Origin: Myxococcota bacterium | GTDB lineage: Bacteria; Myxococcota_A; Bradymonadia; UBA7976; UBA1532 | NCBI GenBank assembly: GCA_018813065.1 | Contig: JAHJCH010000114.1 | Location: 1 to 38,326 of the forward strand | Reading direction: 5' to 3' | Length of the DNA stretch: 38,326 nt | Shown: positions 2,747-21,556 of the stretch, piece by piece | Position numbering within the stretch: position 1 is the stretch's first letter | Layout: every line of letters begins with the position of its first letter | Position numbers and translations under genes: made by a program | The notes under the pieces: model-generated | Databases searched by the model: none | Seen by the model: the letters and a program-made list of their open reading frames with translations, nothing else | What the model was told of the DNA's origin: nothing

Positions 2747-2808
2747 CGCTTGGTCCGCCTCTGCGGAATCTTGTAGGGTGTCGCACTTCACAGGCAACGA
2801 GGCTCCTC

Positions 2809-5800
2809 TTGAGCGAGACGCGCACGGCGCCAGAGCATGACGATCCACCCCTCCCTCTGCCCGCGCTGCGCATCCTCCTCGCCCACCATCGGCGGGCCGA
2901 GCGCGGGGCAGAGACAGACTACAACCTGCCCCAGCTCATCCGGCTCGACGGCCCCCTCGACGTGGCGCGCTTATCCGCGACCCTTGAGCAGCTCATCGCG
3001 CGCCACGACGCCCTCCACAGCCAGATCGTGGCGAAGGGCGGCGCGTGGCGCCTCCAAACGATCACGCCTCCCCCGCTCTCGCTGCGCGCCGAGCCCATCG
3101 CGCGGGGTGAGGCGCGGGCGCGCTTCCAGGCGTTCATCCAGCCCTTCGACTTGGCGACGGCTCCCCTCTCGCGGATCGGGCTGCTGCGCGAGACCCCCAC
3201 CCGCCACTGGCTGATGTGGGATTTTCATCACGCGCTCGTCGATGGGGTCTCGTTGGGTCAAATCTTCGGGGAGATCGGGGCGGGCTACGCGGGGCAGAGC
3301 ATCCCCGCTCCGCGCCTCACCTACGCCGATTTCTGCCGCGACGCCACACGCGAGATCGCCCCACCCCTCAGCCCGCCGCCCTCCCCCATTCCGTGGCTGA
3401 TCGCCCCCTCGCCCCGCGCAGGGATCTTCGTCGAGGCGCTCGATCTCGACGCGGCGCGGCTCGCCCACCTCAAGGCCTCTTCGGCGCGGCTCGGGGTGCG
3501 CTTCACCGCCGTGCTCCTCGAGGGCCTCGGCCGCCTGCTGCGTCGGCTGACGGGCGTCGAGGCGCCGACGATCGGGGTGGTGACCGCAGGGCGCGCGCGG
3601 GCGCGCTTCGAGGGAGTCGTCGGGTGCTTCATCGAGGTCATCCCCGCGCGGATCCCCACGTCGGTGGGCCGCGTCGAGGCCACCTTGGCCGCCGACGCCG
3701 CGCTGACAGAGGGCCTCAACCGCCCCGTCGGCGCAGGCCTCTATGATGTCGTGCTCATCAACCAGGGCTTCCTTGGTCGCGCGGGGCTGCGCCTCGACGG
3801 GCGCGCTCGTCGCGAGGGGCTCGCCCTCACCCCAACGATCATCCGCACGGGCTTGATGGGGGCGACGCTGGCCGTCGAGCTGCTGCCGACCGCCACAGGG
3901 GCGCGCCTGCGCGCGGAGCTGAGCGGGCGCCTCCCCCCCAGCCTGCGCGCCCGCCTCCTGCCCCTCCTCGTGGCGCTCTTGGAGGCCGAGGAGGACACGG
4001 CGCGTTGGCCCACCACCCTCCCTCGCGCCCTCACGGCGGCGCCCGCCCTCGACGGCGGCGATCTGATCGAGGCGCTGCGCGGCTCGGCCCGCCGCCACCC
4101 CGCGCGCGTGGCGCTCGTCACGGCGGCGGGCCGCCTCACCTACGCGGCGCTCTTCGAAGCGGCGGAGGAGATCGCCGAGGCCCTACGCGCCTTCGATCCC
4201 CCGAGCGTGATCCTCGAGGTAGAGGCGCCCGTGGATCGGGTGGCGTTGGCGCTCGGCGCGGCGCTGGCGCGCATCCCCTTTATGTTCATCGAGGATCACC
4301 TCCCCGAGGGCCGCAAGGCCCACCTCCGCGCCCTCCACCCCGGCGGCCTGCGCTTGGAGACCCGCGCTTCATCAAGCTGGAGCCGCCTGCCCGGCGAGGG
4401 TGTACGCCATCCAGGGATCTTGGCCCTCCTGTTCACCTCCGGCAGCACCGGCGCGCCCAAGGCGGTGCGGCTGCGCGCCGAGGCGGCCCTGCGCTACGCC
4501 CGCGCCTTCACCCAGCGCGTCGGCGTCACGCCCGATGATGCGCTCGCCACGCCCGCCTCGTTCATGGTCGATATCGCCCTTGAGGCCCTCCTCGGCGCGC
4601 TCCTCAACGGCGCGGCGCTCTACCCCATCCCCCGCGCGTTGGCCCTCGACGGACAAGCCACCGCCGCCGCGCTGCGACGCGAGGAGATCACCCTCCTCAC
4701 CGCGACCCCCTCTTGGCTGGAGGCGTGCGTGGCGGCGGGCGGCACATTGACGGGGTTGACGATCATCTCGGGGGGGGCGCCGCTGCAGCGCCGCCTCGCC
4801 GTAGAGGGCCTCGCCGGTTGTCGCGTCTTCAACACCTACGGCCCCACCGAGGCCACCATCGCCTGCCTCGCGCATGAGGTCTCCGAGGCTGATCCTGAGC
4901 GCCTCCCGTTGGGGCGGCCCTTGCCGGGGTATCAGATCGTCATCGCCGCGGAGGGGGAGGCGCAGCCTGTGGGGGTCGGCGGGGAGCTGCACATCGGGGG
5001 GCCGCAGTTGAGCGCGGGCTACACCACCCCCGAGGGGCTCGCGCCGCTCAATCTCGTCACGATCCGTGGGGTGGAGGGCGCCCTCTACCCCACCGGGGAT
5101 CTCGCGTGGATGGATCTCGACGGCGTGATCCACTTCGCGGGGCGGCGAGATCGACAGGTCAAGCGGGCGGGGTGGCGCGTGGAGCTGGCCGAGGTGGAGC
5201 GCGTCTTGGCGGCGCGCCCCGACGTCTTGGCGGCGCGCGTCGAGGTCGTCGAGGGCGCGCTCCACGCGTGGATCACCCCCAAGGGCGCCTTCGACCTTGA
5301 GGCGACCCGAGCGGCTCTGCGTCATCACCTCCCCCCCCAGATGCGCCCCTCGGCCCTCTTCGTCAACGGCGCGCGCGCCGCGGAGGGTGGCGCGTCGGCG
5401 ATCCCCGAGGCGCTGCGCCCCCGCCTAGAGGCCCTCTTGCCGCGCTTCGCCGAGGCGCTCGGCGCCGAGATTGGCCCGCACACCGACCTCTTCGAGGCGG
5501 GCGGTGACTCCCTCTCGGCGATGCAGCTCTATGCGGCCCTGAGCGCCGAGTGGGATCTGGAGATCAACGATCTCTTTGAGCACCCCACCCCGCTGGGGAT
5601 CGCCGCGCGGCTGCGCCCCAAGGCCACCGGCGCCGAGCTGGAGGCGCGCCTGCGCGCGATGCTCGAGGTGCCCACCCCGTCCTCACCGTCACACGCGCCG
5701 GTGAACTTCACCCCCTCCACGCCGCTCCAGCGTCGCGCGATCTTGCTCACCGGGGCCACAGGGGACGTGGGCATCCACCTCCTCCGCGCGCTCATCGAGG

Positions 5801-6771
5801 AGACGACGACGCGCGTGTACGTCGGCGTGCGTGGGGGCGTCGAGGCGGGCGGCGCGCGGCTGGCGGCGATCTTCGAGGCCCGCTTCGACGCGCCGCTCGA
5901 TATGGAGCGCGTCACGCTGCTCGACTATGACCTGACGGCGCCCCTCTTGGGGTTGGGCGAGGCGGGCTTCACGGCGTTGGCGCGCGCCTGCGACGGGATC
6001 CTCCACGCCGCCGCCTCCATCAAGCTCGTGGGGCCGCTCGACGCGGCGTTGGCGATCAACCACGCGGGCACCGAGGCCATCCTCGGCCTCCTGGCGCGCA
6101 ACCCCAAGGCCGATCTCTGTTACATCTCGACGACGGCGCTGGATCACCTCGACGGCGCGCCCCACAACCCCTATCTGATCTCCAAGGCGCGGGCCGAGGC
6201 GGCGGTGATGGCGGCCCGTCAGCAAGGCGCGTGGGCCTCGATCTACCGCGTGGGTAACGTGGCCTTCGACGCGGCGACCGGGCGGACACGTCACGACATC
6301 GAGGCGAGCGCCTTCTACCGCTTCCTGCGCGCCGCCCTCGCCACGGGCGCCCTCTTCGATGGACACCGCCCTCTCTTCAACTTCACCTACGCCGATCAGC
6401 TCGCGCGCGGCCTGCTGCGCCTCTGGCATCAACCCACGCTGCTGGGGCGCGACTTCACGTTGAGCAACCCCCATGATCTGAGCCCCCGCCAGCTCCGCGA
6501 GGGGCTGACCCGCGCGGGCTACTCACTGGAGGGGCTGACGCCCGCTGCCTTCGTCGAGGTGTGGGCGCGTCAGCCCGCCACGCGGCGCGGTGATCTCGCC
6601 CTCGCCGCCCACGCGCTGGCGTTGATGGTCGCCGTCTCCCAGCCCGCCTTCCCCAACGCGCGCTCCTGGCTCAAGGCGCTCGACGCCCCCTTCTCCCCCC
6701 CCACCGCGGCGCACCTCCGACGCATGGTCGATCACTGCGTCGCGCGTGGCTTCTTCGAGGCCCCCGCATGA
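2809..6771 (+). CDS. Single-module nonribosomal peptide synthetase (C-A-PCP-R) with a terminal thioester reductase domain. 1320 aa, TTG start assumed.
   Basis: C-domain HHxxxDG (MWDFHHALVDG, nt ~3226-3246). A-domain cores A3 LFTSGSTGAPKAV (nt ~4426-4464), A5 NTYGPTE, A7 YPTGDLA and A8 GRRDRQVKRAGWRVEL. PCP motif GGDSLSAMQL (nt ~5497-5517). C-terminal NAD(P)-binding TGATGDVG (nt ~5751-5775) plus YLISK (YxxxK), typical of R domains. Confidence 0.9.
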   Translation: MSETRTAPEHDDPPLPLPALRILLAHHRRAERGAETDYNLPQLIRLDGPLDVARLSATLEQLIARHDALHSQIVAKGGAWRLQTITPPPLSLRAEPIARGEARARFQAFIQPFDLATAPLSRIGLLRETPTRHWLMWDFHHALVDGVSLGQIFGEIGAGYAGQSIPAPRLTYADFCRDATREIAPPLSPPPSPIPWLIAPSPRAGIFVEALDLDAARLAHLKASSARLGVRFTAVLLEGLGRLLRRLTGVEAPTIGVVTAGRARARFEGVVGCFIEVIPARIPTSVGRVEATLAADAALTEGLNRPVGAGLYDVVLINQGFLGRAGLRLDGRARREGLALTPTIIRTGLMGATLAVELLPTATGARLRAELSGRLPPSLRARLLPLLVALLEAEEDTARWPTTLPRALTAAPALDGGDLIEALRGSARRHPARVALVTAAGRLTYAALFEAAEEIAEALRAFDPPSVILEVEAPVDRVALALGAALARIPFMFIEDHLPEGRKAHLRALHPGGLRLETRASSSWSRLPGEGVRHPGILALLFTSGSTGAPKAVRLRAEAALRYARAFTQRVGVTPDDALATPASFMVDIALEALLGALLNGAALYPIPRALALDGQATAAALRREEITLLTATPSWLEACVAAGGTLTGLTIISGGAPLQRRLAVEGLAGCRVFNTYGPTEATIACLAHEVSEADPERLPLGRPLPGYQIVIAAEGEAQPVGVGGELHIGGPQLSAGYTTPEGLAPLNLVTIRGVEGALYPTGDLAWMDLDGVIHFAGRRDRQVKRAGWRVELAEVERVLAARPDVLAARVEVVEGALHAWITPKGAFDLEATRAALRHHLPPQMRPSALFVNGARAAEGGASAIPEALRPRLEALLPRFAEALGAEIGPHTDLFEAGGDSLSAMQLYAALSAEWDLEINDLFEHPTPLGIAARLRPKATGAELEARLRAMLEVPTPSSPSHAPVNFTPSTPLQRRAILLTGATGDVGIHLLRALIEETTTRVYVGVRGGVEAGGARLAAIFEARFDAPLDMERVTLLDYDLTAPLLGLGEAGFTALARACDGILHAAASIKLVGPLDAALAINHAGTEAILGLLARNPKADLCYISTTALDHLDGAPHNPYLISKARAEAAVMAARQQGAWASIYRVGNVAFDAATGRTRHDIEASAFYRFLRAALATGALFDGHRPLFNFTYADQLARGLLRLWHQPTLLGRDFTLSNPHDLSPRQLREGLTRAGYSLEGLTPAAFVEVWARQPATRRGDLALAAHALALMVAVSQPAFPNARSWLKALDAPFSPPTAAHLRRMVDHCVARGFFEAPA

Positions 6772-9122
6772 GCACGCGCTTCTTCGAGTGGACCCTTCAG
6801 CGCCGCGCGTGGCTGCTCCTCGGCGCGGCGCTCCTCCTCATCCCCCTCCTCCTCGGGGCGCTGCGCGCGCGCCTCGACTTCGACGTAGAGCGCTACTTCC
6901 CCGACGGCGACGTGGAGATCGAGCGTCTCCACGCGCTCCAAGATCGCTTCGGCGCCAGCGGCCCCGCGATCCTCACTTGGCGCCAAGCCGGGGGGTTCTC
7001 TGACGCGGACCTGCCCGCCCTCGCCTCGGCGGCGCGGATCTTCGAGGCGGAGGGGCTTGAGGGGATCTCGTGGATCGGCTCGGTGATGCGGCGCTACGCG
7101 CTGGACTCCCTTGAGGATCTCTTCGAGGACGAGGGGGACAACCCGCTCTACGAGGGGCTCTTGTGGAGCGCGGATCGCGAGACGGTGGTCTTCACCGGGC
7201 GGCTCCCCGCCGCGCGGGATCATGACGATGGGCGGCGCGCGCTGAACACAACGCTGACGGCGGCGCTGGCGTCGCTGGAGATGGAGGGGCGGACGCTGAC
7301 GCTCAACGGCGAGCCCATCCTCCGCGCGCGCTACCTTGAGATGATGGCGGTGGATCAGGTCAACCTCATCGGCGGCGGGGTCCTGCTCACCTTCCTCATC
7401 ATGCTGCTCGTGACGCGCAGTGTCGCCCACTCGCTCTTGACCCTCGCGGCCGTGATCCCCGCCTATCTGCTCGTGCTGACGGTCCTGGCGCTGACAGGGC
7501 GCCCCGTGACAGCGGTGATGTCGATGCTGCCCATCATCCTGCTCGTGGTGGGCCTCTCGGACACGATCCACATCCTCACCCCGCTGAGGGCGCCGCGCGG
7601 AGAGGTTGGCTGGCGCGCGCACATCGCGCGGACCTTCGCGGAGATCGCCCGCCCCTGCCTCTTCACCAGCTCCGTGACGGCGTTGAGCTTCGCGACGCTG
7701 GTGACGGCGGGGGTGGGCATCATCGTGGACTTCGCGCTGGCGACGGCGCTGGGGATCTGGGCGACCTTCGCCTTCTCCATGCTCCTCTTCCCCCCGCTCC
7801 TCAGCCTCCAGCGCGAGAAGGCCGTGGTGGCGCGGCCGACGCCGCGCGCGGTGACGTGGCTGTTGGGGCTCGGCGCGCGGCGGCCCAAACAGGTCCTGGC
7901 CCTCTTCACCCTCAGCGCGGCGGCGGCTGCGGCCTTCGCGCCGCAGACCCAGATCGAGGGCCACATCCTCAACGATCTCCACGATGGGGCCCCGCTCAAG
8001 GAGGATCTGCGCCGCATCGAAAAGCAGGGCTTCGGCGTCTTTCGCGTCAACATCGTCCTCGACGGCGCGCGCGCCCCGCTCTCCCCCGAGCTGCTCGACT
8101 TCAACGATGAGATCGCCCGCTTCGCCCGCGCCTTCGGCGCCTCAGCGAACTCTTCGAGTTCACTTCGTCTCGGGCGCGCAGCGCCCGGCGAGGAGAAATC
8201 CAAAGGATTTATCCGAGGGGGCGAAGCCCCACGTTCTTGGCCTGCTTCGCGGTCCAATTCATCGCGTACCACGCCGCAGGTCATCAAGGCGTTGACCCTC
8301 AATGACTTCATCGGCGAGGCGCTCAACCTGCGCGGGATCCCCTTCACGGCCCAGACGCGCGCCCGCCTCGACTTCTCCGAGGTCGAGGCGGCGCTGCGCG
8401 AGGCAGGCCGCGACGGGGATGGGCCACGGCTCCTCTACGATCCCGAGACCGGCTCAAGCCAGATCCTCCTCTTCGTCGAGGACGTCGGCTCCGAGGTGAT
8501 GCGACCTCTCCTCGCCGAGCTGGACGCCCTGGCGCGCCGCGCGGGTGGATCGATGGCGCCGCACGTGACGGGGACAGTGTGGCTGACAGAGCGCACCTAT
8601 GCGGCGCTCGTTGGTGACTTCACGCGCTCCCTCGGCGTGGCGGTGGTGATGATCTTCGCGATGCTCTGGCTCGTCGGCCGCTCATTGCCCCTCGCGCTCC
8701 TCGGCCTCATCCCCAACTTCTACCCGCTCCTCGCGCTCCTGGGGGTGATCGGGGCCACCGGCTACACCCTCAGCCCTGTCTCGCTGCTCATCTTCACCGT
8801 CGCCTTCGGGCTCGTCGTCAATGACACCGTGCATATCCTCAGTCGGGTCGCGCTGGCGCGGCGCGCTGGGCGTGAAGGGGCCGCCCTCATCCATGAGGTC
8901 ATGGCGATCTTGGGCAAGGCGATCATGACGACCACGCTCGTCCTCGCCGTGGGCTTCGTCGTGATGACGCGCTCTGCGTTTCAGACGATCTTCGATATGG
9001 GCTTTTTGATCCCCACCGCGCTTGTCTTCGCCCTCCTCGCCGACGTGATCTTGCTGCCCGCGCTCTACATCACCGCCGGGCGTTGGGTGGCGCCTCCGGC
9101 GCCTCGGGCTCATGTTGCGTGA
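6768..9122 (+). CDS. MMPL/RND-superfamily membrane exporter (784 aa)
   Basis: The start overlaps the NRPS stop (ATGA). Two blocks of about 5-6 hydrophobic helices (aa ~190-340 and ~610-770), each preceded by a soluble domain. GLSDTIHIL-type motif. Architecture matches MmpL/HpnN-like lipid transporters. Confidence 0.65.
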   Translation: MSTRFFEWTLQRRAWLLLGAALLLIPLLLGALRARLDFDVERYFPDGDVEIERLHALQDRFGASGPAILTWRQAGGFSDADLPALASAARIFEAEGLEGISWIGSVMRRYALDSLEDLFEDEGDNPLYEGLLWSADRETVVFTGRLPAARDHDDGRRALNTTLTAALASLEMEGRTLTLNGEPILRARYLEMMAVDQVNLIGGGVLLTFLIMLLVTRSVAHSLLTLAAVIPAYLLVLTVLALTGRPVTAVMSMLPIILLVVGLSDTIHILTPLRAPRGEVGWRAHIARTFAEIARPCLFTSSVTALSFATLVTAGVGIIVDFALATALGIWATFAFSMLLFPPLLSLQREKAVVARPTPRAVTWLLGLGARRPKQVLALFTLSAAAAAAFAPQTQIEGHILNDLHDGAPLKEDLRRIEKQGFGVFRVNIVLDGARAPLSPELLDFNDEIARFARAFGASANSSSSLRLGRAAPGEEKSKGFIRGGEAPRSWPASRSNSSRTTPQVIKALTLNDFIGEALNLRGIPFTAQTRARLDFSEVEAALREAGRDGDGPRLLYDPETGSSQILLFVEDVGSEVMRPLLAELDALARRAGGSMAPHVTGTVWLTERTYAALVGDFTRSLGVAVVMIFAMLWLVGRSLPLALLGLIPNFYPLLALLGVIGATGYTLSPVSLLIFTVAFGLVVNDTVHILSRVALARRAGREGAALIHEVMAILGKAIMTTTLVLAVGFVVMTRSAFQTIFDMGFLIPTALVFALLADVILLPALYITAGRWVAPPAPRAHVA

Positions 9123-9145
9123 CCTCTCGACGCCCGAGGCCCATC

Positions 9146-10090
9146 ATGATGCCCATCATGGACAGCCCATTCTCCGCCAAGCTTAAGCGGCTCCGCCGCA
9201 ACCTCAGCCTGCGGGGGGTCTTTCTCCTCCTCGCCTTGGGCGTCATCTTGCCCGCGCTCGCCTCCACCTCGGTGGGCATCGTCGCCCTCGTCATCGGCGA
9301 GGGCGACGACGATCTCGTCATCGGGGTGCTGGTCGTCTCCTTCACCGCCGTGGCGATCGGCGCGTCCGTCGCCGCCACGATCCTGCTCGGCGTGCGCGCC
9401 CGCACCGCCCGACTCCAAGCGGATCTGCTGGCCAACGTCAGCCACGAGCTGCGTACGCCCCTGGCGGTCATCCGGATGTACGCCCAGACGCTCCAGCACA
9501 AGCGCTTCGAGCGCCCCGAGCAGGAGGAGGCCTGCGTGGAGACCATCATCCGAGAGACGGAGCGGCTTGAGGCGATGATCCAGCGCGTGCTGACGTGGCG
9601 GGCCGCCGCCAAGGATCGAGACGTCGCGGCGATCGAGCGCGCGCCGCTGAGCCCGACGGTGGCGCAGGCCATCGCTCGCTTCCAGCGGATGCTGGCGCCC
9701 GGAGAGGTGGAGCTGGACGTCGAGCTCGACGCGGAGGTCCAAGCGCGGCACGATCCCCATCAAATCACAGAGTCGGTGCTCAACCTCTTGGTCAACGCGC
9801 ATAAATACACACGATCGCCGCGCCGCGTGCGCGTGCGCACCCTACTTCAAGGTGAGATGGCCGCCATCGTCGTCGAGGACAACGGCGTGGGGATCCCTCA
9901 CGCGGAGATCAAGCGGATCTTCGATCCCTTCTATCGCGTGCAGCGGACGAATCACAAAGCCGCGGGCGCGGGCCTGGGGCTGGCGATCGTCCGTCATATC
10001 GCCAAGGTGCATGGGGGGCAGATCCTCGTAGAGAGCGAGGTGGGGGTGGGCAGCGCCTTCACCCTCCAGATCCCGGGGGCGGCGCCATGA
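9146..10090 (+). CDS. Sensor histidine kinase (HisKA + HATPase_c) with two N-terminal TM helices and essentially no extracytoplasmic domain
   Basis: H-box ANVSHELRTPLAVI, N-box LNLLVNAHKYT, G1 DNGVGIP and G2 GAGLGLAIV. An alternative GTG start at 9083 would overlap the MMPL gene. Confidence 0.85.
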   Translation: MMPIMDSPFSAKLKRLRRNLSLRGVFLLLALGVILPALASTSVGIVALVIGEGDDDLVIGVLVVSFTAVAIGASVAATILLGVRARTARLQADLLANVSHELRTPLAVIRMYAQTLQHKRFERPEQEEACVETIIRETERLEAMIQRVLTWRAAAKDRDVAAIERAPLSPTVAQAIARFQRMLAPGEVELDVELDAEVQARHDPHQITESVLNLLVNAHKYTRSPRRVRVRTLLQGEMAAIVVEDNGVGIPHAEIKRIFDPFYRVQRTNHKAAGAGLGLAIVRHIAKVHGGQILVESEVGVGSAFTLQIPGAAP

Positions 10091-10764
10091 GCGAGACGAT
10101 CTTGGTGATCGAAGACGAAGACGCGCTCCGCGAGGGGTTGGGCTTGAACCTTCGCCTCGCGGGCTATGAGGTGCGCCTCGCCCCCGATGGGATGACGGGG
10201 CTAGGGCTGGTGGTGGAGCTGAGCCCCGCCTTGCTCGTGCTGGATATGATGCTGCCGGATCTGGATGGCCTGGAGATCATCGACACCCTGCGTGGGCAGG
10301 GGGATGATGTGCCGATCTTGGTGTTGTCGGCGCGGAGCACGACGGAGGATAAGATCGAGGGGCTGAAGCTGGGGGCGGATGATTATCTATCTAAACCTTT
10401 CGAGCTGTCCGAGCTGCTGGCGCGGGTGGAGGCGATGCTGCGCCGCCGTCGTGCGCGCGTGCGAGAGCGCTTGTGCTTCGGTGAGATCTGCATTGATATG
10501 GAGGCGCGGGAGGTGACACGGGCAGATGAGGTGGTGGCGCTGTCGGCCAAGGAGTTTAATCTATTGTATTTATTGGCGCGTTCGCCTGGTCGGACTTTTA
10601 GTCGGGAGCTGATCTTGGATCGCGTCTGGGGCTGGGGCTTTGAGGGGACCAGCCGGACGGTCAATAATTTTATATTGAGCTTGCGGCATAAGCTGGAGGA
10701 TAACCCCAAGCGGCCGCGACATATCAAGACGGTGCGGCAGGTGGGGTATAAGCTCGTTCGATAA
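10087..10764 (+). CDS. OmpR/PhoB-family response regulator (receiver + winged helix)
   Basis: Start overlaps the HK stop (ATGA). Receiver motifs (LVLDMMLPDLDG, SARSTTEDKIEGLKLGADDYLSKPF). C-terminal trans_reg_C signature (...RTVNNFILSLRHKLE...VRQVGYKL). Confidence 0.9.
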   Translation: MSETILVIEDEDALREGLGLNLRLAGYEVRLAPDGMTGLGLVVELSPALLVLDMMLPDLDGLEIIDTLRGQGDDVPILVLSARSTTEDKIEGLKLGADDYLSKPFELSELLARVEAMLRRRRARVRERLCFGEICIDMEAREVTRADEVVALSAKEFNLLYLLARSPGRTFSRELILDRVWGWGFEGTSRTVNNFILSLRHKLEDNPKRPRHIKTVRQVGYKLVR

Positions 10765-10882: not shown

Positions 10883-12460
10883 ATGTCGATGTTTTCGCTG
10901 ATCATCGCTCTCCTGATCACGCCCGCCCCCGCTGAGGAGCGGCTCACCTTAACGGTGACACCCTACGCCGAAGATCTACACAGTTGGTCACCGGCGCGCG
11001 TGGATGAGGCCATGAGCTTGGCGGCGTGGTATCTCAAGAAGTGCCGTATTGACCTTGACTGGGCGCCGATCAAGCCGCTGCGCCCAGGCGATGAGACCGA
11101 CTTAACGACGCTCCAGCGCACGAACCGTCACGATGAGCTGCTCTTGTTGTTGCGGGCGCCAGGGGACCGGCGCGCATACGCGCTGAGCGGCGTGGCCAAT
11201 CTGCGCCGCGTCCACGGTGGCTGGGTGGCGGAGACGGCTTGGACCAACACGATACTCGCCCTCGCGGAGGTGCTTGGCCGAGGTAAGCTCAAGCGCTGGC
11301 CGAGCCCTGAGGGGGCAGACGGCGAAGCCTCGCGGGCGTTGGCGCACCTCGCCATGCTCTACGCAACAGCGCAGGGCTGGATCACGATGGCCCCGGCGAT
11401 CACCGAAAAGCACTGCGCCTTCCTGCAACGGAGGCTGAGCCACCTCAGCAAGCAGCGGCCTCGACAAGCGGGCGGGCGGAGGCCTCTGAGCGAGAAGGGG
11501 CCTCAAGCGATCCATGGCTTGACGCTGCCACGCGCGCCCCAGGCGCTGCTTATGGCCGATGTGCCAGCCCGTGATGCCTATCAAGCGGCGGTGAAGGTGG
11601 CCGCAACCTCTTGGCGTCTGCTCACGTGGTATCCACACCAAGTGCAGCTCCATAAAGGCGTCATCGAGGTGCCGGGCGAGGGCCTCGCGCTGCTGCGCGT
11701 GGGCTGGATGCCGCTGTTTATCTCGAAGAACAACGACGCGGTGCATATCACCTGGGCGCATGTCTATGCCCGCGACCTGAAGCAGTACCGTCGAGGGCGT
11801 CGGCTCAAGGGCTGCGCGCGGCTGCTCGCCGCCGATGTCGTACAAGCGGGTCATGACCTGCCCGCCCAGCATCCAGGCGTGGCGATGGTCGTCTGTGACA
11901 ATCGCGTATATCAGATCACGCCGCTGCTCTCTCACGATGAGCGCGTTGACACGCTGCCGCCCATGCGTTGGGCCACGATCACGCGCTGGGGGCCTGGCCG
12001 CGCGCAGCTGATCGCCGCGCATCCGGACGGGGTGGGCGTCTATACCCTGTGGCCTGGTCATCCACCGCAGCGGGTCAAGACGCCTGAGGCGGTGGCCGCG
12101 CTGGCGGCGCTCGCCGACGCGCCGATTTGGCAGGGTTTGGGCGTCGAGCCCGTGCAGTTAACCCCGAATGTTCTGCGCACACCCACGACATCGCGGCCTC
12201 TGGGTGATGGCGCTCGGGCGTGGTTCAGCGGGCATCAGCAGCGGGCCTTGCGGCTCAAGGCCACGGCGAGCGGCTTGAGCTTTCGCAGCGACAGCCTGAT
12301 TGGGGGCGCGTCGCGCCAGGTGACTTTGCCCGTAGGCGCGATCTGGGCCATTCAACCCGGTGACGTCGGGCCGCTCTTATGGGCGCTGACCCTCATCAAC
12401 GGGCGTTGGCATCTGTATCCCGCTTTCGAGCCCGGGTGGAGTATGAGCGTTGAGCCATAG
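10883..12460 (+). CDS. Hypothetical secreted protein (525 aa)
   Basis: Strong RBS (GGAGGA, 6 nt spacer). N-terminal signal peptide MSMFSLIIALLITPAPA. High GC3. No family recognised. Confidence 0.6.
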   Translation: MSMFSLIIALLITPAPAEERLTLTVTPYAEDLHSWSPARVDEAMSLAAWYLKKCRIDLDWAPIKPLRPGDETDLTTLQRTNRHDELLLLLRAPGDRRAYALSGVANLRRVHGGWVAETAWTNTILALAEVLGRGKLKRWPSPEGADGEASRALAHLAMLYATAQGWITMAPAITEKHCAFLQRRLSHLSKQRPRQAGGRRPLSEKGPQAIHGLTLPRAPQALLMADVPARDAYQAAVKVAATSWRLLTWYPHQVQLHKGVIEVPGEGLALLRVGWMPLFISKNNDAVHITWAHVYARDLKQYRRGRRLKGCARLLAADVVQAGHDLPAQHPGVAMVVCDNRVYQITPLLSHDERVDTLPPMRWATITRWGPGRAQLIAAHPDGVGVYTLWPGHPPQRVKTPEAVAALAALADAPIWQGLGVEPVQLTPNVLRTPTTSRPLGDGARAWFSGHQQRALRLKATASGLSFRSDSLIGGASRQVTLPVGAIWAIQPGDVGPLLWALTLINGRWHLYPAFEPGWSMSVEP

Positions 12461-15066: not shown

Positions 15067-15501
15067 ATGCAACAGCAGACGAGCTTTGGGCAGATTCTAT
15101 ATCGACGACGCAAGGAGCTTGGGCTCACGCAGAGCCAGCTGGCCAGGATGATTGGCGTGCAGCCTAACTACATAGTTTATCTAGAGAAAGGTGAGCGCCA
15201 CCCCTCGGATCGTACGGTCAAAAAGGTGGCCGTGGCGCTTGAGCTTGATAAGGGAGAGCTGTTCCTCGCGGCGAATCCACAGGTGCGCGACTTTCTAAAC
15301 GTAGATGAGGATAACGTGATCCACCACGAGTACTTGCCCATCGGGCTTAAAGCGCTCTTGGAGGATGATGATCTATGCAATTTATTTGATATTACTGGCG
15401 AAGAAATCGCACTTTTGGCGAAAATTCGCTTTGATGGGCGTGTGACAGAAGCTCAACAGTACTTATCTCTCCTATTAAATATAAGATATATCTTCTCTTA
15501 G
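15067..15501 (+). CDS. XRE (Cro/C1)-family helix-turn-helix transcriptional regulator (144 aa)
   Basis: N-terminal HTH_3 signature (LGLTQSQLARMIGVQPNYIVYLEKGERHPSDRTVKKVAVALEL). The C-terminal third has lower GC. Confidence 0.75.
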   Translation: MQQQTSFGQILYRRRKELGLTQSQLARMIGVQPNYIVYLEKGERHPSDRTVKKVAVALELDKGELFLAANPQVRDFLNVDEDNVIHHEYLPIGLKALLEDDDLCNLFDITGEEIALLAKIRFDGRVTEAQQYLSLLLNIRYIFS

Positions 15502-15503
15502 TT

Positions 15504-16391
15504 TTATTTATCCTCTGAATGGGTCAAATCAAGCGCGTAATGCGCCCAGATTCGGAAACTCCAAAAGCCGAGCTTGAGCGTCAACGAGTCCAGCGCGTCT
15601 TGATCCTCCGAGACCCGCAGAGCGAGGCCACACCCCGCCGTCGCCGCCGCGCGCATGGCCTCCACTAAGAGGAGGCGGCCTACGCCGCTGCCCCGCTGAT
15701 CTGGCCGCACCGCGAGGGCGCCGACCTCCCAGGCGTCGCGCAGCGGGTAGATGATCACCGCCCCAACGTCCTCCCCACCCCGCGCGGCGATCCGCGCCCA
15801 GGCGCGCCCCGCTTGGATGTCCTCCTGGTCAACCCAAGGGGGCGGCCACGCCTGGGGATCAAAGGCGCGGATCAACGCCGTGAGGCGCTCGGCGTCCACG
15901 CTGGCGCGCAGCGTCGCGCTGTGAAAAGCCGGCGCGACCTCCTCGACCTCGCCATCCCAGCGCCTCAACGTACACAGCTGTCGTGGCTGGAAGCCCTCGC
16001 GCTCAAGGAGCCGCCGCGCCGCGACGCTCGTCGGATCAAAGCTGGCGTAGGCGCGCCTCTCCTGCCTCAAGAGCCGCCTCAGTAACGCCCGGCCCACCCC
16101 ACGCCGCCGATGCTTGGGGATCACGCTCACCCCGATGGCCGACCACCCCCCCATCTCTCGACGCCAGCAGACCCCAAGCGCGCTCCCATCCCGAACGGCG
16201 AGGTGCGCTTCTTGGCTGCGCTCAATCCATAAAGCAGAGACCGGCGCGGCGAGGAAGTCGCCCATGCGGATCGCTGAGAGGCAGCTCGTCAGCGCGCCGT
16301 GGGGGGCGAGGCTGAGCGGGATTAAATCGTAGGTGTTGGTGCTCTCCACGCCCACGCTCCATCCTGGCTTGTGCTCCTCCTTATGGCTCAA
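15504..16391 (-). CDS. Tandem GNAT-fold N-acetyltransferase (295 aa)
   Basis: Two acetyl-CoA-binding motif A copies (PKHRRRGVGRALLRRLL and RPDQRGSGVGRLLLVEAM). Confidence 0.75.
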   Translation of the reverse strand: MSHKEEHKPGWSVGVESTNTYDLIPLSLAPHGALTSCLSAIRMGDFLAAPVSALWIERSQEAHLAVRDGSALGVCWRREMGGWSAIGVSVIPKHRRRGVGRALLRRLLRQERRAYASFDPTSVAARRLLEREGFQPRQLCTLRRWDGEVEEVAPAFHSATLRASVDAERLTALIRAFDPQAWPPPWVDQEDIQAGRAWARIAARGGEDVGAVIIYPLRDAWEVGALAVRPDQRGSGVGRLLLVEAMRAAATAGCGLALRVSEDQDALDSLTLKLGFWSFRIWAHYALDLTHSEDK

Positions 16392-16602: not shown

Positions 16603-19600
16603 GTGATAGATCAGATCCCCCTTCTTGGGCTCACGCTCTTATTGGCCGCGCCCCCCCCCGCGCCCATCCCTCGCCCCGGCGCGGGTGAGTCGGAGGCGGT
16701 CATCGAGGTTCAAGGCTTTGGCCGCTACGCCATTCAAGCGCAGAGCCCACGCGGCGCCACTGTGCGGCTCCTTGATCGCATGACCGGCCTCAGCGCGCCC
16801 GCCGGTGAGGTGGGCCGCGTCGATGGTCGCCTCGATGTCTTCCTTGAGCGCGGCGAATATAAGATCGTCACCCAAGGGCCGGCGGATGAGCAGGGCCAGA
16901 CCCTCTTGCACGTCCGGCCCTTCTCCGAGCGCGGCGCCGATCAAGCCCTCGTGGAAGGCCAACCCCTCACCACCGCTTTGGATGATCTTGAGTCGCTGAG
17001 CTATTGGCTGGAGCTGCCCCTCCCCAAGCGCGTCACCCTGGAGGCCGCCGGGCGAAACCTGGAGACCCTGCGCTTGTGGCGCGATGGGGCTTGGCTCGAT
17101 CCCAACACCCCTCAGTGCGCGGTGATCTCCCCCACCCCCACACAGCCCCTCAAGCGCTGCCGCTTCTCCGCGCAGCTGCCCGCCGGGCTCTATCGCCTCA
17201 GCCTCTACGGCGGCCCCAGCCAGCCCTGGACCACCGCCAGCGACGCCCACCCGCTGCACCTGCGCTGGGGCATCCCGCGCCTGGGCGCAGAGGGCTACAG
17301 CGCCCAGGTCATCAGCGCCTTCGGCGAGGACCTCTTCATCGCCCCCTCCGGCGCTGATCGCTTTGAGCTGTGGCTGAGCCAACCCGCGCCCATCGCCTTT
17401 AAGGTTGAGCGCCTCTGGAATCAGCCCTTCGGCGATCCCGAGCGGGCGCTCAGCGCCCTGAGCCCCCAGGCGCGCGTGCCGACGTTGAGCCTCTATGAGG
17501 GCAGCGACGCCGAGCGCTTGGTCACGGTGCAAGGTCAGCCCGGTCAGGGCTATCGCCTCTGGCGTTATGAGGAGGCCTATACACAAGGCGCCCTCAGCCG
17601 CGACGGCGATTTCTTCTTCTCGTTGATCCCCGCCGCGCCCCTCGCCGACGTCATCGACGTCACCTTGCTCCTCTGGCAGCAGACCGAGGCGGGCGCCAAG
17701 GAGATCGCCGCGCAGCTCATCGAGATCGGGCCAGGTCGCGCTTATCAGGGCCGCTTTAACGTCGAGGGCGAGGTCAGCTTGCTCATCGATGTGTTGGCGC
17801 GTGGCAGCTACCCCTTCTATGCGGAGGGCGCGCGCTTTCAGCTCAAGCCGCTGGTGATGGATGAAGAGGCGCCGTTTGAGCTGGCGCCCTTCGCCGAGAA
17901 GCGCCTGGAGGAGCTGGAGGCGGGCCGCTACGTCTTGACCCTCAAGAGCGACGCGCCGCAGGCGGTGGCGCTGCGGATCGGCCTGGGCGCGCCGACCCCG
18001 ACCCGAGGCGTGGCCCAGATCCCCCAGCTCCACCTGGAGGGGGGCACGAGCCTCTACTTCCGCGCCGGCGAGACGGGCGCCCGCTTCGCCAAGCACCTGC
18101 GGCGGCTGCCCCTCGATCTGGAGTCGGCGCTGCCCTTGGTGCTCTTGCCCGGCGAGACGATCGAGCTGCCCATCGCCCCCAAGGTGGCGGGCGTCATCAA
18201 CGCCTTGGCCGTTGAGGGCGCGGCCCAGCTCTCCCTCGACGGCGGGCCTTGGCGCGCCGAGGTGACCGCCGCCCCCGGCGCGGCGCGGCTGCGCGTCCGC
18301 AGCGCTGCGCCCACCTCCGCCCTCTTCAGCCTCGCCCTTACCCCCGCGCTTCAAGCCCTCAAGGCCCCCACCACGCGCCCTGAGCCCCTGGTGGGGATCA
18401 AGCTGGGCGCGCCGCTGGCCTTCGCCGTGACGCCCAACACGCCCTACACCCGCAAGGTGGAGATCGACGCGCCGGGCTTCTACATCGTCGAGAGCGCGGG
18501 GCTGCTGAGCGTCCGTGGGCAGCTGCGCACCCGCACCCGCCCTGAGCTGGCCACCAACACCGGCGGCGGCCCGGGCGGCAACGCCTGGCTCTCCGCCTTC
18601 CTGCGCCCCGGCGACTACGCCGTGACCTACACCCCCCAAGGCCGCTCCGCCGGTGACATGAGCGCCCGCGTGCGCGCCGCCACGCTCATCGAGGCGGGCG
18701 CCTTGGTCGATGGTCGCCCCGCCCGCGTGGAGATCCCCGCCGACGCCGTGGCCCGCTTCACCTTTGAGATCCCGACGGCGGGGCGCTGGCGCGTGGAGGC
18801 CTTTGGCCTGGGGCAGACCCTCCTCTGCCGCGTCGAGGACGAGGCGGGCTGGCCCATCGGCGCCGTCGATGGCCCCTGTGATCGCGCCCTCGATCTCAAG
18901 GCGGGCCGCTACGCCCTGCTCTTGCCCGCCAAGCGCGTGGAGATCACCGCCCAAGCGCGCATCAGCCGCGTCCTCGACGCGCTGACCGTCAAGGGGCATG
19001 GGCCGCACGCCGTGGCCTTGGGCGCCTCCGTTGAGGCCCTCTGGCGTGAGTCGCCGCAGCGCGAGCCGGATGTGTGGACCTTTAGCCTCCCCGCGCCGGA
19101 TGAGATCACCCTCAGCCTCGGCGACGCCATGATGGGCCAGCTCCTCGACGCCCAAGGCGCCCTCATCGCGCCCATCCACCCCGGCCAAGCCCTCAAGCGC
19201 GCGCTGCCGATGGGGGATTACCGCCTTGAGATCCGCGCCCGTCGCCGCGATGACTTCCGCGCCTATACGCTCGATTTACGCAGCGAGGCGCTCTTAGCGG
19301 GGCAGACGCGCGAGGTGGAGGTGCTCAAGTCCAAAACGCTCAGCGTCTCCATCGGCGAGGCCGGGCGCTATGTCTTCTCCTCCTTCGGCCAAGCGGATCT
19401 GATGGCCCACCTCTACGACGCCCAGGGCGCGCTGATCGCGCATAACGATGATCGCCCGCTGGACTGGAACTTCCGCCTCTCCGCCCAGCTCAACCCTGGG
19501 CGTTATCGCTTGGAGATCGAGGACTTCGAGGAGCGCGAGCCCTGGGCGTGGCGCTGGGAGGCGCCCAAGGAGGCGCGCGTGGAGCTGCGCCGCGTCACCC

Positions 19601-21555
19601 CACGCCCCGGCCCCGCGCTGCCCCCCAACGCGCCCCTCACCGCGCCGATCGCCGATGACGCGTCGAGCCACCTCTTCGCTCTCGATGGCCTGCGCCCCGG
19701 CTTGATCGAGGTGGAGGTGCGCGGCGGCGAGGCGCTGGAGGTGGCCTTGGATGCCCAAGGGCCGCGTGGCTGGGCGGAGATCGCCGCCACGCAGGGGGTC
19801 CACGTGCAGTTTAAGGCGCTGACGACCCCTGGCGCGGCGCATCGCCTGCGCGTCTCCTCGATGGATCTGCGCGGCGCGCCGGCGACGATCTCTTGGCGCG
19901 CGGTCCAGGTCCCCCGCGTCGAGGCGGCCCGCTTGGCGCGGACCCCGACGACGGCGGACGGCGCCTATGTGGTCACGCCGCCGGGCCTGTGGCGGCTCTC
20001 TCGCGCCGATAACGTGCTGGTCTGCGACAGCCTGCCTGGCGCCTGCGCGGCGCCCACCTCCACGCTCATCTACACCCAAGGCGGCGGCCTGTTCTTGCTC
20101 GGCGAGGGCCTCACCGCCGCCCCCGTGGTGCTGGCTGAGGGGGAGGGCCTCAAGGTCAACGCGCCGGGGCCACGGCGCCTGGGGGTGGCCGCCTCTGAGG
20201 GCGCGCCTCGTGTCCTCATCGCCCGCGCCTCGGGGGGCCGCCCGCTCCTGGCCTTTGGTCCTAAGCCGACCATGCCCGGCGCCGTCAGCGCCAACGGCGC
20301 CCTGGCCGTCGATCCTCAAGGGGGCGCCACGGAGGCGATCCTCTGGCCCGCCACCGGCGAGGTGGCCACGGCCACGCTGCGCCTCACGCCCCTGCGCGCC
20401 TTGCCCTCACGCGCCGTGGCCTTGGGCGCGGTGGATCTCAACGTCCCGCCGCGCGCCGCGCTGCGCTTGACGCCCCCGCGAGGGCGGCTGCGCTTTGAGC
20501 TGAGCTTGTCCGAGGGCTTGGCCGCCGAGGCGCTGGCCCTGCACTGGGCCGACGGCGCGGCTTTGCATATCCAAGGCGAGCTTGAGGGCGCGCTGACCCT
20601 CTACAACCCCACCGAGGCCCCAGGCCGTGTTGCTCTGTCGCTACGCGAAGCGCTACGCGGGGAATGCAAGGCGCCCTGCGCCGCGCCCATCGCCGTGGGC
20701 CGCCCGCTGGCGGAGGTGCTCTTGAGCGCCGGGCGCTACGCCGCGTCGATCCCCGCCGCCGAGGCGGGCGTCACCCTCCACGCGCGCGGCGGCGCGGCGC
20801 GCTACCTCCGCCATGATGGCCGCCTCTTCGACGGCGACGCCGCCCCCGTTGGCCCCGGCGGCGTGCTGCTCATCGAGCACGCCCCCGGCTCGATCTTCGC
20901 GTGGATCGAGGCCCAGCCCGGCGCGGGCCCCTGGCCGCAAGCCGAGGCGCCGCCGAGGGCGATCACCAGCCCCACGCGCTTGGAGCTTGAGGACGCCGCG
21001 CGCCTACAGCTCGACGTCGGCGGCCCCGCCCTCCTCCACGTCCGCGCCCATGGCACGCTCGCCGCCCGCGTGCAGACACAGGGCGGGCGCGCTGACACCG
21101 CGCTCGTCAACGGCGCCTTTGATCGCTGGCTGCCGACGGGGCAGGCCGAGATCCACCTCCGCGCCCTGCCGCGCGGCCCCCTCGGCGTGGTGGACATCAG
21201 CCACAGCCCCGCCGTGGCGCTCCAAGAGGGCGTCGGCCCCCAGGCGCTGCTGCGCCCCGGTGAGCGCCGCGCCTACACCCTCAGCCTCAGCAGGCCCCGC
21301 ACCATCGGCTTCGGCCTGCGCGCCGACGCCGATCGCGTCACGCTGGAGATCCGCCGCCCTGACGGGACGCTCATCGCTGAGGGTCTGGCCCAGATGACCG
21401 CGCTGGAGGCCGGGGACTATATCCTGCTCCTCCACCTCCCCCCCGAGGGCAGGCCCACCCGCGTGCGGCCCGTCGTCTTGGGGCTGACGCCCCCCGAGGC
21501 GGTGCCCCCAGACGTGATCGAGTCCTATCAGCAGCAAGCACAAGGAGGTGACTGA
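16603..21555 (+). CDS. Giant secreted protein (1650 aa) built from repeated PPC-like (pre-peptidase C-terminal type) beta-sandwich modules. No catalytic domain recognised.
   Basis: GGAGG RBS 7 nt before a GTG start. Signal peptide MIDQIPLLGLTLLLAAPPPAP. Recurrent module signatures: G(R/D)Y(R/A/V)L..., DLMAHLYDAQGALIAHNDDR and LLDAQGALIAPIHPG...GDYRLEIRA. The stop lies 1 nt before the A2M start. Confidence 0.8.
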   Translation: MIDQIPLLGLTLLLAAPPPAPIPRPGAGESEAVIEVQGFGRYAIQAQSPRGATVRLLDRMTGLSAPAGEVGRVDGRLDVFLERGEYKIVTQGPADEQGQTLLHVRPFSERGADQALVEGQPLTTALDDLESLSYWLELPLPKRVTLEAAGRNLETLRLWRDGAWLDPNTPQCAVISPTPTQPLKRCRFSAQLPAGLYRLSLYGGPSQPWTTASDAHPLHLRWGIPRLGAEGYSAQVISAFGEDLFIAPSGADRFELWLSQPAPIAFKVERLWNQPFGDPERALSALSPQARVPTLSLYEGSDAERLVTVQGQPGQGYRLWRYEEAYTQGALSRDGDFFFSLIPAAPLADVIDVTLLLWQQTEAGAKEIAAQLIEIGPGRAYQGRFNVEGEVSLLIDVLARGSYPFYAEGARFQLKPLVMDEEAPFELAPFAEKRLEELEAGRYVLTLKSDAPQAVALRIGLGAPTPTRGVAQIPQLHLEGGTSLYFRAGETGARFAKHLRRLPLDLESALPLVLLPGETIELPIAPKVAGVINALAVEGAAQLSLDGGPWRAEVTAAPGAARLRVRSAAPTSALFSLALTPALQALKAPTTRPEPLVGIKLGAPLAFAVTPNTPYTRKVEIDAPGFYIVESAGLLSVRGQLRTRTRPELATNTGGGPGGNAWLSAFLRPGDYAVTYTPQGRSAGDMSARVRAATLIEAGALVDGRPARVEIPADAVARFTFEIPTAGRWRVEAFGLGQTLLCRVEDEAGWPIGAVDGPCDRALDLKAGRYALLLPAKRVEITAQARISRVLDALTVKGHGPHAVALGASVEALWRESPQREPDVWTFSLPAPDEITLSLGDAMMGQLLDAQGALIAPIHPGQALKRALPMGDYRLEIRARRRDDFRAYTLDLRSEALLAGQTREVEVLKSKTLSVSIGEAGRYVFSSFGQADLMAHLYDAQGALIAHNDDRPLDWNFRLSAQLNPGRYRLEIEDFEEREPWAWRWEAPKEARVELRRVTPRPGPALPPNAPLTAPIADDASSHLFALDGLRPGLIEVEVRGGEALEVALDAQGPRGWAEIAATQGVHVQFKALTTPGAAHRLRVSSMDLRGAPATISWRAVQVPRVEAARLARTPTTADGAYVVTPPGLWRLSRADNVLVCDSLPGACAAPTSTLIYTQGGGLFLLGEGLTAAPVVLAEGEGLKVNAPGPRRLGVAASEGAPRVLIARASGGRPLLAFGPKPTMPGAVSANGALAVDPQGGATEAILWPATGEVATATLRLTPLRALPSRAVALGAVDLNVPPRAALRLTPPRGRLRFELSLSEGLAAEALALHWADGAALHIQGELEGALTLYNPTEAPGRVALSLREALRGECKAPCAAPIAVGRPLAEVLLSAGRYAASIPAAEAGVTLHARGGAARYLRHDGRLFDGDAAPVGPGGVLLIEHAPGSIFAWIEAQPGAGPWPQAEAPPRAITSPTRLELEDAARLQLDVGGPALLHVRAHGTLAARVQTQGGRADTALVNGAFDRWLPTGQAEIHLRALPRGPLGVVDISHSPAVALQEGVGPQALLRPGERRAYTLSLSRPRTIGFGLRADADRVTLEIRRPDGTLIAEGLAQMTALEAGDYILLLHLPPEGRPTRVRPVVLGLTPPEAVPPDVIESYQQQAQGGD

Positions 21556-21556
21556 G

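Follow-up and report, generated by a model that had tools for sequence, protein, structure and literature searches.

In a metagenome-assembled genome (MAG) of an uncultivated "Myxococcota bacterium", positions 2809–10764 of a 38,326-bp contig (the window hereafter, this contig having been analysed over its whole length) hold a compact cassette, the core of which we read with moderate confidence as a minimised one-module nonribosomal peptide synthetase (NRPS) coupled to a lipid exporter of the RND/MMPL type, a pair that would make and export an N-acyl, Lys-type aldehyde or alcohol. From the sequence, a product of the class of N-acyl amino aldehydes or alcohols can reasonably be inferred. A first-pass annotation of this DNA, made from the letters alone, had placed four genes on the forward strand of the interval, for an NRPS, an MMPL transporter, a histidine kinase, and a response regulator, and the four open reading frames (ORFs) were recovered at the same coordinates with their Pfam domains all confirmed.

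Synthetase and exporter genes as a recurrent unit

The link between making and exporting is best seen in related loci. Two relatives of the exporter were found (P0122 and P0123, 45% and 42% identical, respectively), and identity is at most 25% thereafter. Both relatives are encoded on short metagenomic contigs, one from the MAG "Deltaproteobacteria bacterium SZUA-580" (L001, the same contig as L003) and the other from an ENA assembly (L002), and directly upstream of the exporter in each lies a contig-truncated gene that is 40–42% identical to the part of the window synthetase running from the adenylation (A) domain through the peptidyl carrier protein (PCP) to the reductase (R) domain. In all three loci, the stop of the synthetase gene and the start of the exporter gene overlap by 4 nt, as ATGA in the window (6768–6771, the exporter ATG lying within the synthetase stop) and in L002, and as GTGA in L001. 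This overlap thus recurs at 40–45% protein identity, and the predicted make-plus-export link is accordingly stronger than the first-pass annotation could show. The truncated synthetases also have in common with that of the window the loss of the A10 loop, an SFMVDI motif, a short reductase, and a C-terminal tail; beyond the NRPS and exporter genes, nothing is common to the window and the two other loci.

Such a cassette is very rare, with three loci known. In a collection of 5.8 billion proteins, the best full-length relative of the synthetase is 30% identical over 68% of its length, and when 1.84 billion representatives were searched exhaustively with HMMER, giant multimodular NRPSs dominated and nothing family-like ranked above them. 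A word-indexed search returned nothing above 30% identity for the synthetase and only P0122 and P0123 for the exporter, and a query with the family-specific reductase tail retrieved only a 313-aa fragment (33% identity) that carries the canonical insertion and is not clearly a member of the family. Scanning genome contigs for the family recovered L001 alone, metagenome scans gave nothing or an unrelated 3142-aa synthetase, the plasmid collection held just distant MMPL matches, and no paper on a comparable NRPS(R)–MMPL pair was found in the literature. Other assemblies of this population contain near-identical copies of the window locus (L005, 99.93% identical, and L006); the population copies show 10 differences over 14 kb, 2 of them within the NRPS gene, too few for a selection analysis.

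Within the window itself, the four genes had been described as translationally coupled, and their close packing is in keeping with co-translation. Overlaps are present at the synthetase–exporter junction and at the kinase–regulator junction, where the regulator ATG lies within the kinase stop in a second ATGA overlap (10087–10090), but not at the exporter–kinase junction if the kinase starts at ATG 9146, the start used by gene callers, which leaves a 23-nt spacer after the exporter stop. This start is most likely the right one, being preceded by the CGAGGC Shine-Dalgarno motif that also precedes the NRPS and MMPL starts, when the alternative TTG at 9083 is without such a motif. The GC content at third codon positions (GC3) is 0.90 for the synthetase, 0.89 for the exporter, and 0.88 for the kinase, like the remainder of the contig, and 0.76 for the regulator. 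On this evidence, the genes are real, native, and coding rather than chance ORFs in GC-rich DNA, and the host-like GC3 together with the common CGAGGC motif argues for native, expressed genes. No terminator-like site was found between the four genes, which are likely co-transcribed. An Rfam scan of the whole window, the leader of the operon included, matched no riboswitch or other known RNA.

A trimmed synthetase, its predicted substrate, and its exporter

The single module with condensation (C), A, PCP, and R domains that had been proposed for the synthetase is borne out by the order of its Pfam matches, namely Condensation (E = 3.2e-33; 115.6 bits against a cut-off of 30.6), AMP-binding (9.1e-44), PP-binding (2.3e-11), and, in the reductase region, NAD_binding_4 (2e-28) and also Epimerase. 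Catalytic motifs agree with this order: HHALVDG (residue 140) in the C domain; TSGSTGAPK (543), VDIA (587), NTYGPTE (675), YPTGD (760), and GRRDRQVK (778) in the A domain; GGDSL (898) in the PCP; and GATGDVG (982) and YLISK (1122) in the R domain. The five A-domain motifs are conserved in L001 too. The terminal thioester reductase was likewise correctly recognised, its Rossmann motif being intact and its YxxxK present. An AlphaFold2 (AF2) model of residues 1–960 resembles solved C-A-PCP modules (Foldseek E 1e-52, TMq 0.5–0.6).

The module is nonetheless trimmed, being about 170 residues shorter than ordinary enzymes of the same architecture (C-A-T-R). Measured against 102 comparators, 403 residues separate its His motif from A3 (minimum 432, median 477) and 123 separate A8 from the PCP serine (minimum 131, median 148), with a normal A3-to-A8 distance of 235. 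By alignment, the deletions amount to about 35 aa between A2 and A3, several segments of the C-domain C-lobe (C6 included), and a part of the R domain between its Thr and its Tyr.

With regard to the substrate, an acidic residue at position 239 with I/G at positions 299/301 is typical of Lys/Orn/Dab-type domains in the Stachelhaus table. We mapped the pocket by hand to PheA numbering, through the A4, GG(E), and A5 motifs and 1AMU alignment offsets, and obtained the code D235 I236 E239 T278 I299 G301 T322 I330 A331 (DIETIGTIA), the corresponding code of L001 being DIETIGSVA. The FMVDIA segment, which had been flagged as an anomaly in place of the FDxS region, turned out to be an ordinary A4 motif: in the alignment, VDIA stands opposite FDxS, and the residue that contacts the alpha-amine of the substrate, Asp235, is kept. 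Compared with the Lys codes validated by ATP-PPi exchange (DIEDVGSVVK for Rv0101/MmaA and DTEDVGTVVK for ScoA; bioRxiv 10.1101/121228), DIETIGTIA has D235, I236, E239, and G301 in common, plus three conservative positions. A cationic amino acid, L-Lys foremost, is therefore the most likely substrate predicted from the pocket.

As to the acyl donor, the C domain is the first domain of the sole module, begins at about residue 14, and belongs to a protein holding the one carrier-protein motif of the 38-kb contig. Pfam scans of all large ORFs on this contig found no acyl ligase, acyl carrier protein (ACP), or MbtH-like gene and no second carrier protein. The starter function ascribed to this domain by the first-pass annotation is consistent with its position and with the lack of an upstream carrier on the contig, but a starter subtype could not be demonstrated. 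Because the contig is without a second carrier protein, an acyl ligase, or an ACP, the donor would most simply be a host acyl-CoA or acyl-ACP; DudA, the dudomycin synthetase, takes hydroxy-acyl-CoA from host metabolism (PMC7696016).

On this basis, we propose a scheme in which each step is inferred from domains whose presence and motif integrity are observed directly. Going by the code DIETIGTIA (Asp235 and Glu239 included), the A domain would select a cationic amino acid, most probably L-Lys, for loading onto Ser901 of the PCP. The sole N-terminal C domain would transfer a host acyl-CoA or acyl-ACP group to the alpha-amine, and it may acylate the epsilon-amine too. In MxcG, ScoA/MmaA, and DudA, one C domain acylates both amines, a precedent that makes a diacylated product a live possibility; the product is thus possibly N,N'-diacyl instead of N-acyl. 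The short-chain dehydrogenase/reductase (SDR) domain would then use NAD(P)H to release the thioester as an aldehyde or alcohol, and a proton-driven MMPL/HAE3-like pump would move the amphiphilic product out of the inner membrane. In this genome, the kinase and the OmpR-type regulator, probably co-transcribed with the pair, would tune the operon on a signal from the membrane or the transporter.

As for the pump, its earlier designation as an MMPL-type transporter is well founded: Pfam MMPL is matched above the gathering score (1.6e-18; 67.2 bits against 20.5) and Sterol-sensing at 2e-8, the hydropathy profile has an RND topology of about 12 transmembrane (TM) segments with two large periplasmic loops (TM1, loop, TM2–6, loop, TM8–12), and the relay motifs GLSDTIH in TM4 and VNDTVH in TM10 (S264-D265-H268 and D686-T687-H689) are invariant in the three exporter orthologues. 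NCBIfam models score below their cut-offs, with HAE3 first (TIGR00921, 93.7/351.9 bits), followed by MMPL (TIGR00833, 57.7/874.7) and HpnN (TIGR03480, 33.8/751.85). Neither solved MmpL3 nor solved HpnN showed detectable similarity to the exporter at E<0.01, the best solved relative being the sterol-sensing domain of NPC1L1 (E 1.5e-4). In mycobacteria, MmpL4/5 export mycobactins, and both the glycopeptidolipid (mps/mmpL4) and the mycobactin/MmpL4-5 pathways pass the lipidic product of an NRPS to an adjacent MMPL-family exporter, glycopeptidolipid synthesis ending with an R domain. By comparison with these pathways, the window exporter is nearer HAE3 than MmpL and is without MmpS, Gap, or polyketide synthase partners.

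Distant relatives of the exporter (24–25% identity; L007 7075–10271 and L008 7318–10815) are paired with LolA-like TP_0789/DUF1329 genes. This pairing suggests a wider exporter subfamily working with a periplasmic lipid carrier, and by analogy the adjacency fits the handling of lipids or hydrophobes; a TP_0789-like/DUF1329 partner is not present in the window.

Weighing the readings

Among the alternatives, the one that survives best concerns the regulatory genes, which may be an independent neighbour of the synthetase, devoted to an envelope function or to the orphan secreted protein encoded downstream, with no specific link to the NRPS product. The kinase matches HisKA (9e-17) and HATPase_c (6e-25), and the regulator matches Response_reg (3e-27, 95.5 bits) and Trans_reg_C (4e-26, 91.3 bits). 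Hydrophobic segments at about residues 24–50 and 57–83 of the kinase are separated by GEGDDD, and its H-box lies about 16 residues past TM2, a distance too short for a HAMP or PAS domain to fit in; the NCBI label "HAMP domain-containing" is unsupported by Pfam, and the intramembrane-sensing type announced by the first-pass annotation (two TM helices, a short loop, no other input domain) was recovered. Independence of this two-component system is favoured by the generic, PhoR/MtrA-like character of its catalytic cores, by the lower GC3 of its regulator, and by the fact that both genes are absent after the exporter in L001 and L002, from which it follows that the conserved unit is the NRPS plus the exporter. 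On the other hand, only a 23-nt spacer without terminator-like site separates it from the exporter gene, on the same strand and with the same Shine-Dalgarno motif, and a kinase free of sensor domains beside a transporter recalls BceS-type kinases, which sense through their transporter (bioRxiv 10.1101/2020.02.28.969956; PMC3023708). The window kinase is like them in its two TM helices, few-residue loop, lack of extra sensory domain, OmpR-type partner, and adjacent transporter; the transporter is here an RND/MMPL pump rather than a BceAB ABC transporter, in a host of the Gram-negative type. We regard full independence as rather unlikely, and the two-component system as a predicted local accessory that stands outside the conserved unit. 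Of the self-contained make-export-sense module proposed at first, the make/export pair is thus reinforced by the overlaps in two independent loci, but the sensing part is not conserved.

The orphan ORF in question (525 aa, 10883–12460, same strand) begins 118 nt past the response regulator gene with a signal-peptide-like N-terminus, matches no family of Pfam, NCBIfam, or PHROGs, and is found in all three assemblies of the population and in neither L001 nor L002. It could be a further member of the operon or a target of the regulator.

Several observations weigh against an active, acylating, Lys-specific synthetase tied to its own sensor. To the absence of the regulatory genes from the related loci are added the sub-threshold scores of the synthetase on the adenylation model TIGR01733 (211.6 bits against a cut-off of 317.4) and on the thioester reductase model TIGR01746 (108 against 213.35), for which three ordinary C-A-T-R proteins reach 441–490 and 313–364, respectively. 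The Lys call is based on identity at four of the nine code positions. As to the subtype of the C domain, its N-lobe is nearer among PDB structures to an ordinary elongation C domain, that of TycC6 (89 bits), and to Txo2 (73.5 bits) than to the starter C domain of RzmA (28 bits), and in homologues the domain resembles N-terminal C domains as much as internal ones. The C-lobe, which lacks C6, has no match among other C domains, and its model has a pLDDT (predicted local distance difference test score) below 50; in the family, a single full-length member represents the C domain. Finally, and this is the real oddity of the A domain, overlooked by the first-pass annotation, the A10 PxxxxGK loop and its catalytic lysine, described as critical for the adenylation step in a structural review (PMC10510592), are missing in all three family members.

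This last feature is also what gives weight to a second alternative, that of a decayed or non-adenylating synthetase, which would either be inactive or have its PCP loaded in trans and an A domain of purely structural role. After its A9 motif LPPQMRP, the window synthetase reads SALFVNGARAAEGGAS where relatives read AAFVVLDALPLTPNGK, and the HMMER alignment places its NGA opposite NGK; in the AF2 model, the last Asub strand (849–852) is followed by just 14 low-confidence residues up to PCP helix 1. Among the 120 nearest homologues, a canonical xGK[..][D/N] follows 175 of 193 A8 motifs, and each of the 11 other exceptions among the matches listed either retains a K or is interrupted by a methyltransferase, truncated, or scrambled. 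A frameshift was rejected as the cause of the loss, given that the other two frames are NRPS-unlike at this place and that the loss repeats in L001 and L002. Decay would also account for the low model scores and for the segments deleted from the C, A, and R domains, and silent A domains without this lysine have a precedent in PyrG A1, which is also without A3 (PMC10510592). Unlike PyrG A1, however, the window A domain keeps its A3 P-loop, A4 Asp, A5, A7, and A8, its pocket residues are conserved between 40%-identical orthologues, and it is part of an uninterrupted ORF of 1320 codons with a GC3 of 0.90. The replacement loop holds one basic residue in each family member, at a position that is not conserved. 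Moreover, the same deletions occur in three lineages that have all retained the coupled exporter, which argues for traits under selection rather than for the decay of one genome. A decayed synthetase is on these grounds improbable.

The comparison with known systems bears on the third alternative. MxcG, the myxochelin synthetase of myxobacteria, is like the window synthetase in its phylum, C-A-PCP-R order, reductive release, and Lys-type pocket, and its single C domain acylates PCP-bound Lys according to the part of PMC7696016 that cites Gaitatzis 2001. Yet the window has no mxcC-F equivalents for the supply of DHB, the synthetase is paired with an RND/MMPL pump and not with transport genes of the siderophore type, and, besides having no A10 lysine, it falls about 120 aa short of the 1442 positions of the MxcG profile. 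In the actinobacterial enzymes ScoA/MmaA (Rv0101 module 1), a single C domain puts fatty-type acyl chains on both Lys amines, and a four-electron reduction by the R domain frees the product as an alcohol (10.1101/121228). Their codes are similarly Lys-type, but they keep the A10 lysine (the final K of the code), belong to another phylum, and have clusters that always include an acyl-ACP ligase, an ACP, a thioesterase-like gene, and an Fe/2OG oxidase, none of which was found by Pfam scans of the large window ORFs. A metallophore of the myxochelin or isonitrile-lipopeptide type, in which two functionalised acyl or aryl groups, made in trans from genes elsewhere in the genome, would be put onto the Lys amines before reductive release and MMPL export, is nevertheless suggested by the Lys-like code close to those of Rv0101/MmaA/ScoA, by the C-A-T-R order of MxcG and ScoA, and by MxcG being the best NCBIfam model (NF038078), but this match reaches only 235.8 bits against a cut-off of 2300 and is architectural rather than specific, since ordinary unrelated C-A-T-R enzymes score 670–920 on the same model, and no DHB, acyl-ACP ligase, ACP, Fe/2OG, thioesterase-like, TonB-receptor, or uptake gene is present in the window or in L001, so that we consider it distinctly improbable.

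A further likeness to the make-and-export reading is offered by the dudABC cluster of Streptomyces albus subsp. chlorinus, in which an NRPS of one module is accompanied by a membrane transporter and a transcriptional regulator but by no precursor genes, and in which the single C domain of DudA diacylates Lys with host hydroxy-acyl-CoA (PMC7696016). The two are alike as minimal make-export-regulate clusters, a likeness drawn by description rather than by sequence comparison. DudA differs by ending in a thioesterase instead of a reductase, so that its product is a free acid, and DudB is described only as a putative membrane transporter and DudC only as a transcriptional regulator (PMC7696016), which establishes neither an MMPL pump nor a two-component system. 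The window cassette would be of an ordinary kind, a lipo-amino-acid NRPS of minimal size together with an exporter of its own, with MxcG, ScoA/MmaA, and DudABC as its closest functional analogues; by the tests run, it belongs to none of the three.

A bolder version of the same reading, which we regard as a long shot, would make of the three loci a rare family of minimised Lys-type NRPSs that adenylate without the A10 lysine, through another residue or mechanism, and that produce, through diacylation of lysine by the single C domain and reductive release, a phosphorus-free, two-tailed N,N'-diacyl-lysinol or -lysinal membrane lipid, delivered to the outer envelope by the RND pump; in this genome, the kinase would read out the pump or the lipid. 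More generally, if the synthetase is active, the cassette would be among the smallest self-sufficient lipo-amino-acid pathways known, made of one enzyme and one pump supplied with host acyl thioesters. Coming from uncultivated Myxococcota, it would also provide a natural test of the limits to which an NRPS module can be reduced (some 170 residues fewer, no A10, and an A–PCP connection of 14 residues) and would show whether adenylation can run without its "universal" A10 lysine, which would help both to engineer NRPSs and to tell which of the "degenerate" A domains met in genome mining are truly dead. If the synthetase is inactive, the locus would stand as a cautionary case for automated calls of biosynthetic gene clusters.

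Coordinates and surroundings of the cassette

The features of the cassette are collected in table 1.

Table 1. Genes, leader, and synthetase domains of the cassette, in window coordinates.
Feature	Position	Strand	Characteristics
NRPS leader (native), from the second 55-nt repeat copy to the TTG start, 62 nt	2747..2808	+	GAGG Shine-Dalgarno 8–11 nt before start
NRPS gene	2809..6771	+	1320 aa, single module C-A-PCP-R, TTG start; Pfam matches and motifs
Condensation domain, aa ~14–415	2848..4053	+	HHALVDG aa 140–146 (nt 3226–3246); C-lobe shortened, without C6 HQDxPFE
Adenylation domain, aa ~420–852	4066..5364	+	A3, A4 (VDIA), A5, A7, A8 intact; code D-I-E-T-I-G-T-I-A
Loop NGARAAEGGASAIP, aa 853–866, 14 residues	5365..5406	+	At the site of the A10 PxxxxGK loop and A–PCP linker; no catalytic lysine; pLDDT <50
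PCP domain, aa ~867–952	5407..5664	+	Phosphopantetheine Ser901 in GGDSL (nt 5509–5511)
Thioester reductase (SDR) domain, aa 978–1320	5740..6768	+	GATGDVG and YLISK; short Thr-to-Tyr spacing; family-specific C-terminal tail
RND-superfamily exporter gene (Pfam MMPL; closest NCBIfam model HAE3)	6768..9122	+	784 aa
Intramembrane-sensing-type histidine kinase gene	9146..10090	+	314 aa; HisKA and HATPase_c
OmpR/PhoB-family response regulator gene	10087..10764	+	225 aa; Response_reg and Trans_reg_C

Directly upstream of the NRPS gene lies a 1659-bp insert flanked by a perfect 55-nt direct repeat (978–1032 and 2692–2746), 55 being a common assembler k-mer size. The insert has a stretch of 31% GC in a genome of about 70% GC and holds two orphan ORFs (1012–1431 and 1452–2450, the second with an N-terminal signal/TM segment) that have no match in Pfam, NCBIfam, PHROG, phage, or IMG/VR data; neither an integrase nor a tRNA was found in it. 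A one-off assembly chimera was rejected as its origin, since a second MAG has the same ORFs ahead of the NRPS gene and a Logan assembly of another run reproduces the left junction. The insert also contains an irregular GC-rich tandem array (2464–2632) with 10 exact copies of AGTAGGTGGC (1.3 expected) at a spacing of 12–22 bp, the only copies in the window; a terminator-like hairpin (2630–2643) comes after the array. In a Logan contig from another sample, this array is one 20-bp unit shorter, so that either its copy number varies or the assembly collapsed it. It was not adopted as a binding site of the regulator, in view of its irregular spacing and of its location in the insert rather than in the native leader.

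Farther downstream, the region 16603–29583 comprises a 1650-aa ORF without Pfam domain, which overlaps the start of a bacterial alpha-2-macroglobulin (A2M) gene (21548–27250), itself overlapping a gene for a PBP1C-type penicillin-binding protein (27247–29583); the A2M-PbpC gene pair is well known. At 29725–32280, the bacterium encodes an 851-aa protein like the major vault protein (MVP), with matches to the eukaryote-type MVP shoulder (3.9e-25) and to the Vault_3 repeat (1.7e-11) and a weak SPFH/Band 7 match below the Pfam cut-off. Lastly, a small gene with an XRE-type helix-turn-helix (15067–15501) directly adjoins an opposite-strand gene (15504–16391) for a GNAT acetyltransferase of two domains; the GC content (48.5%) and GC3 (0.56) of the XRE-type gene are markedly below those of its neighbours, and it is possibly a recently acquired regulator.

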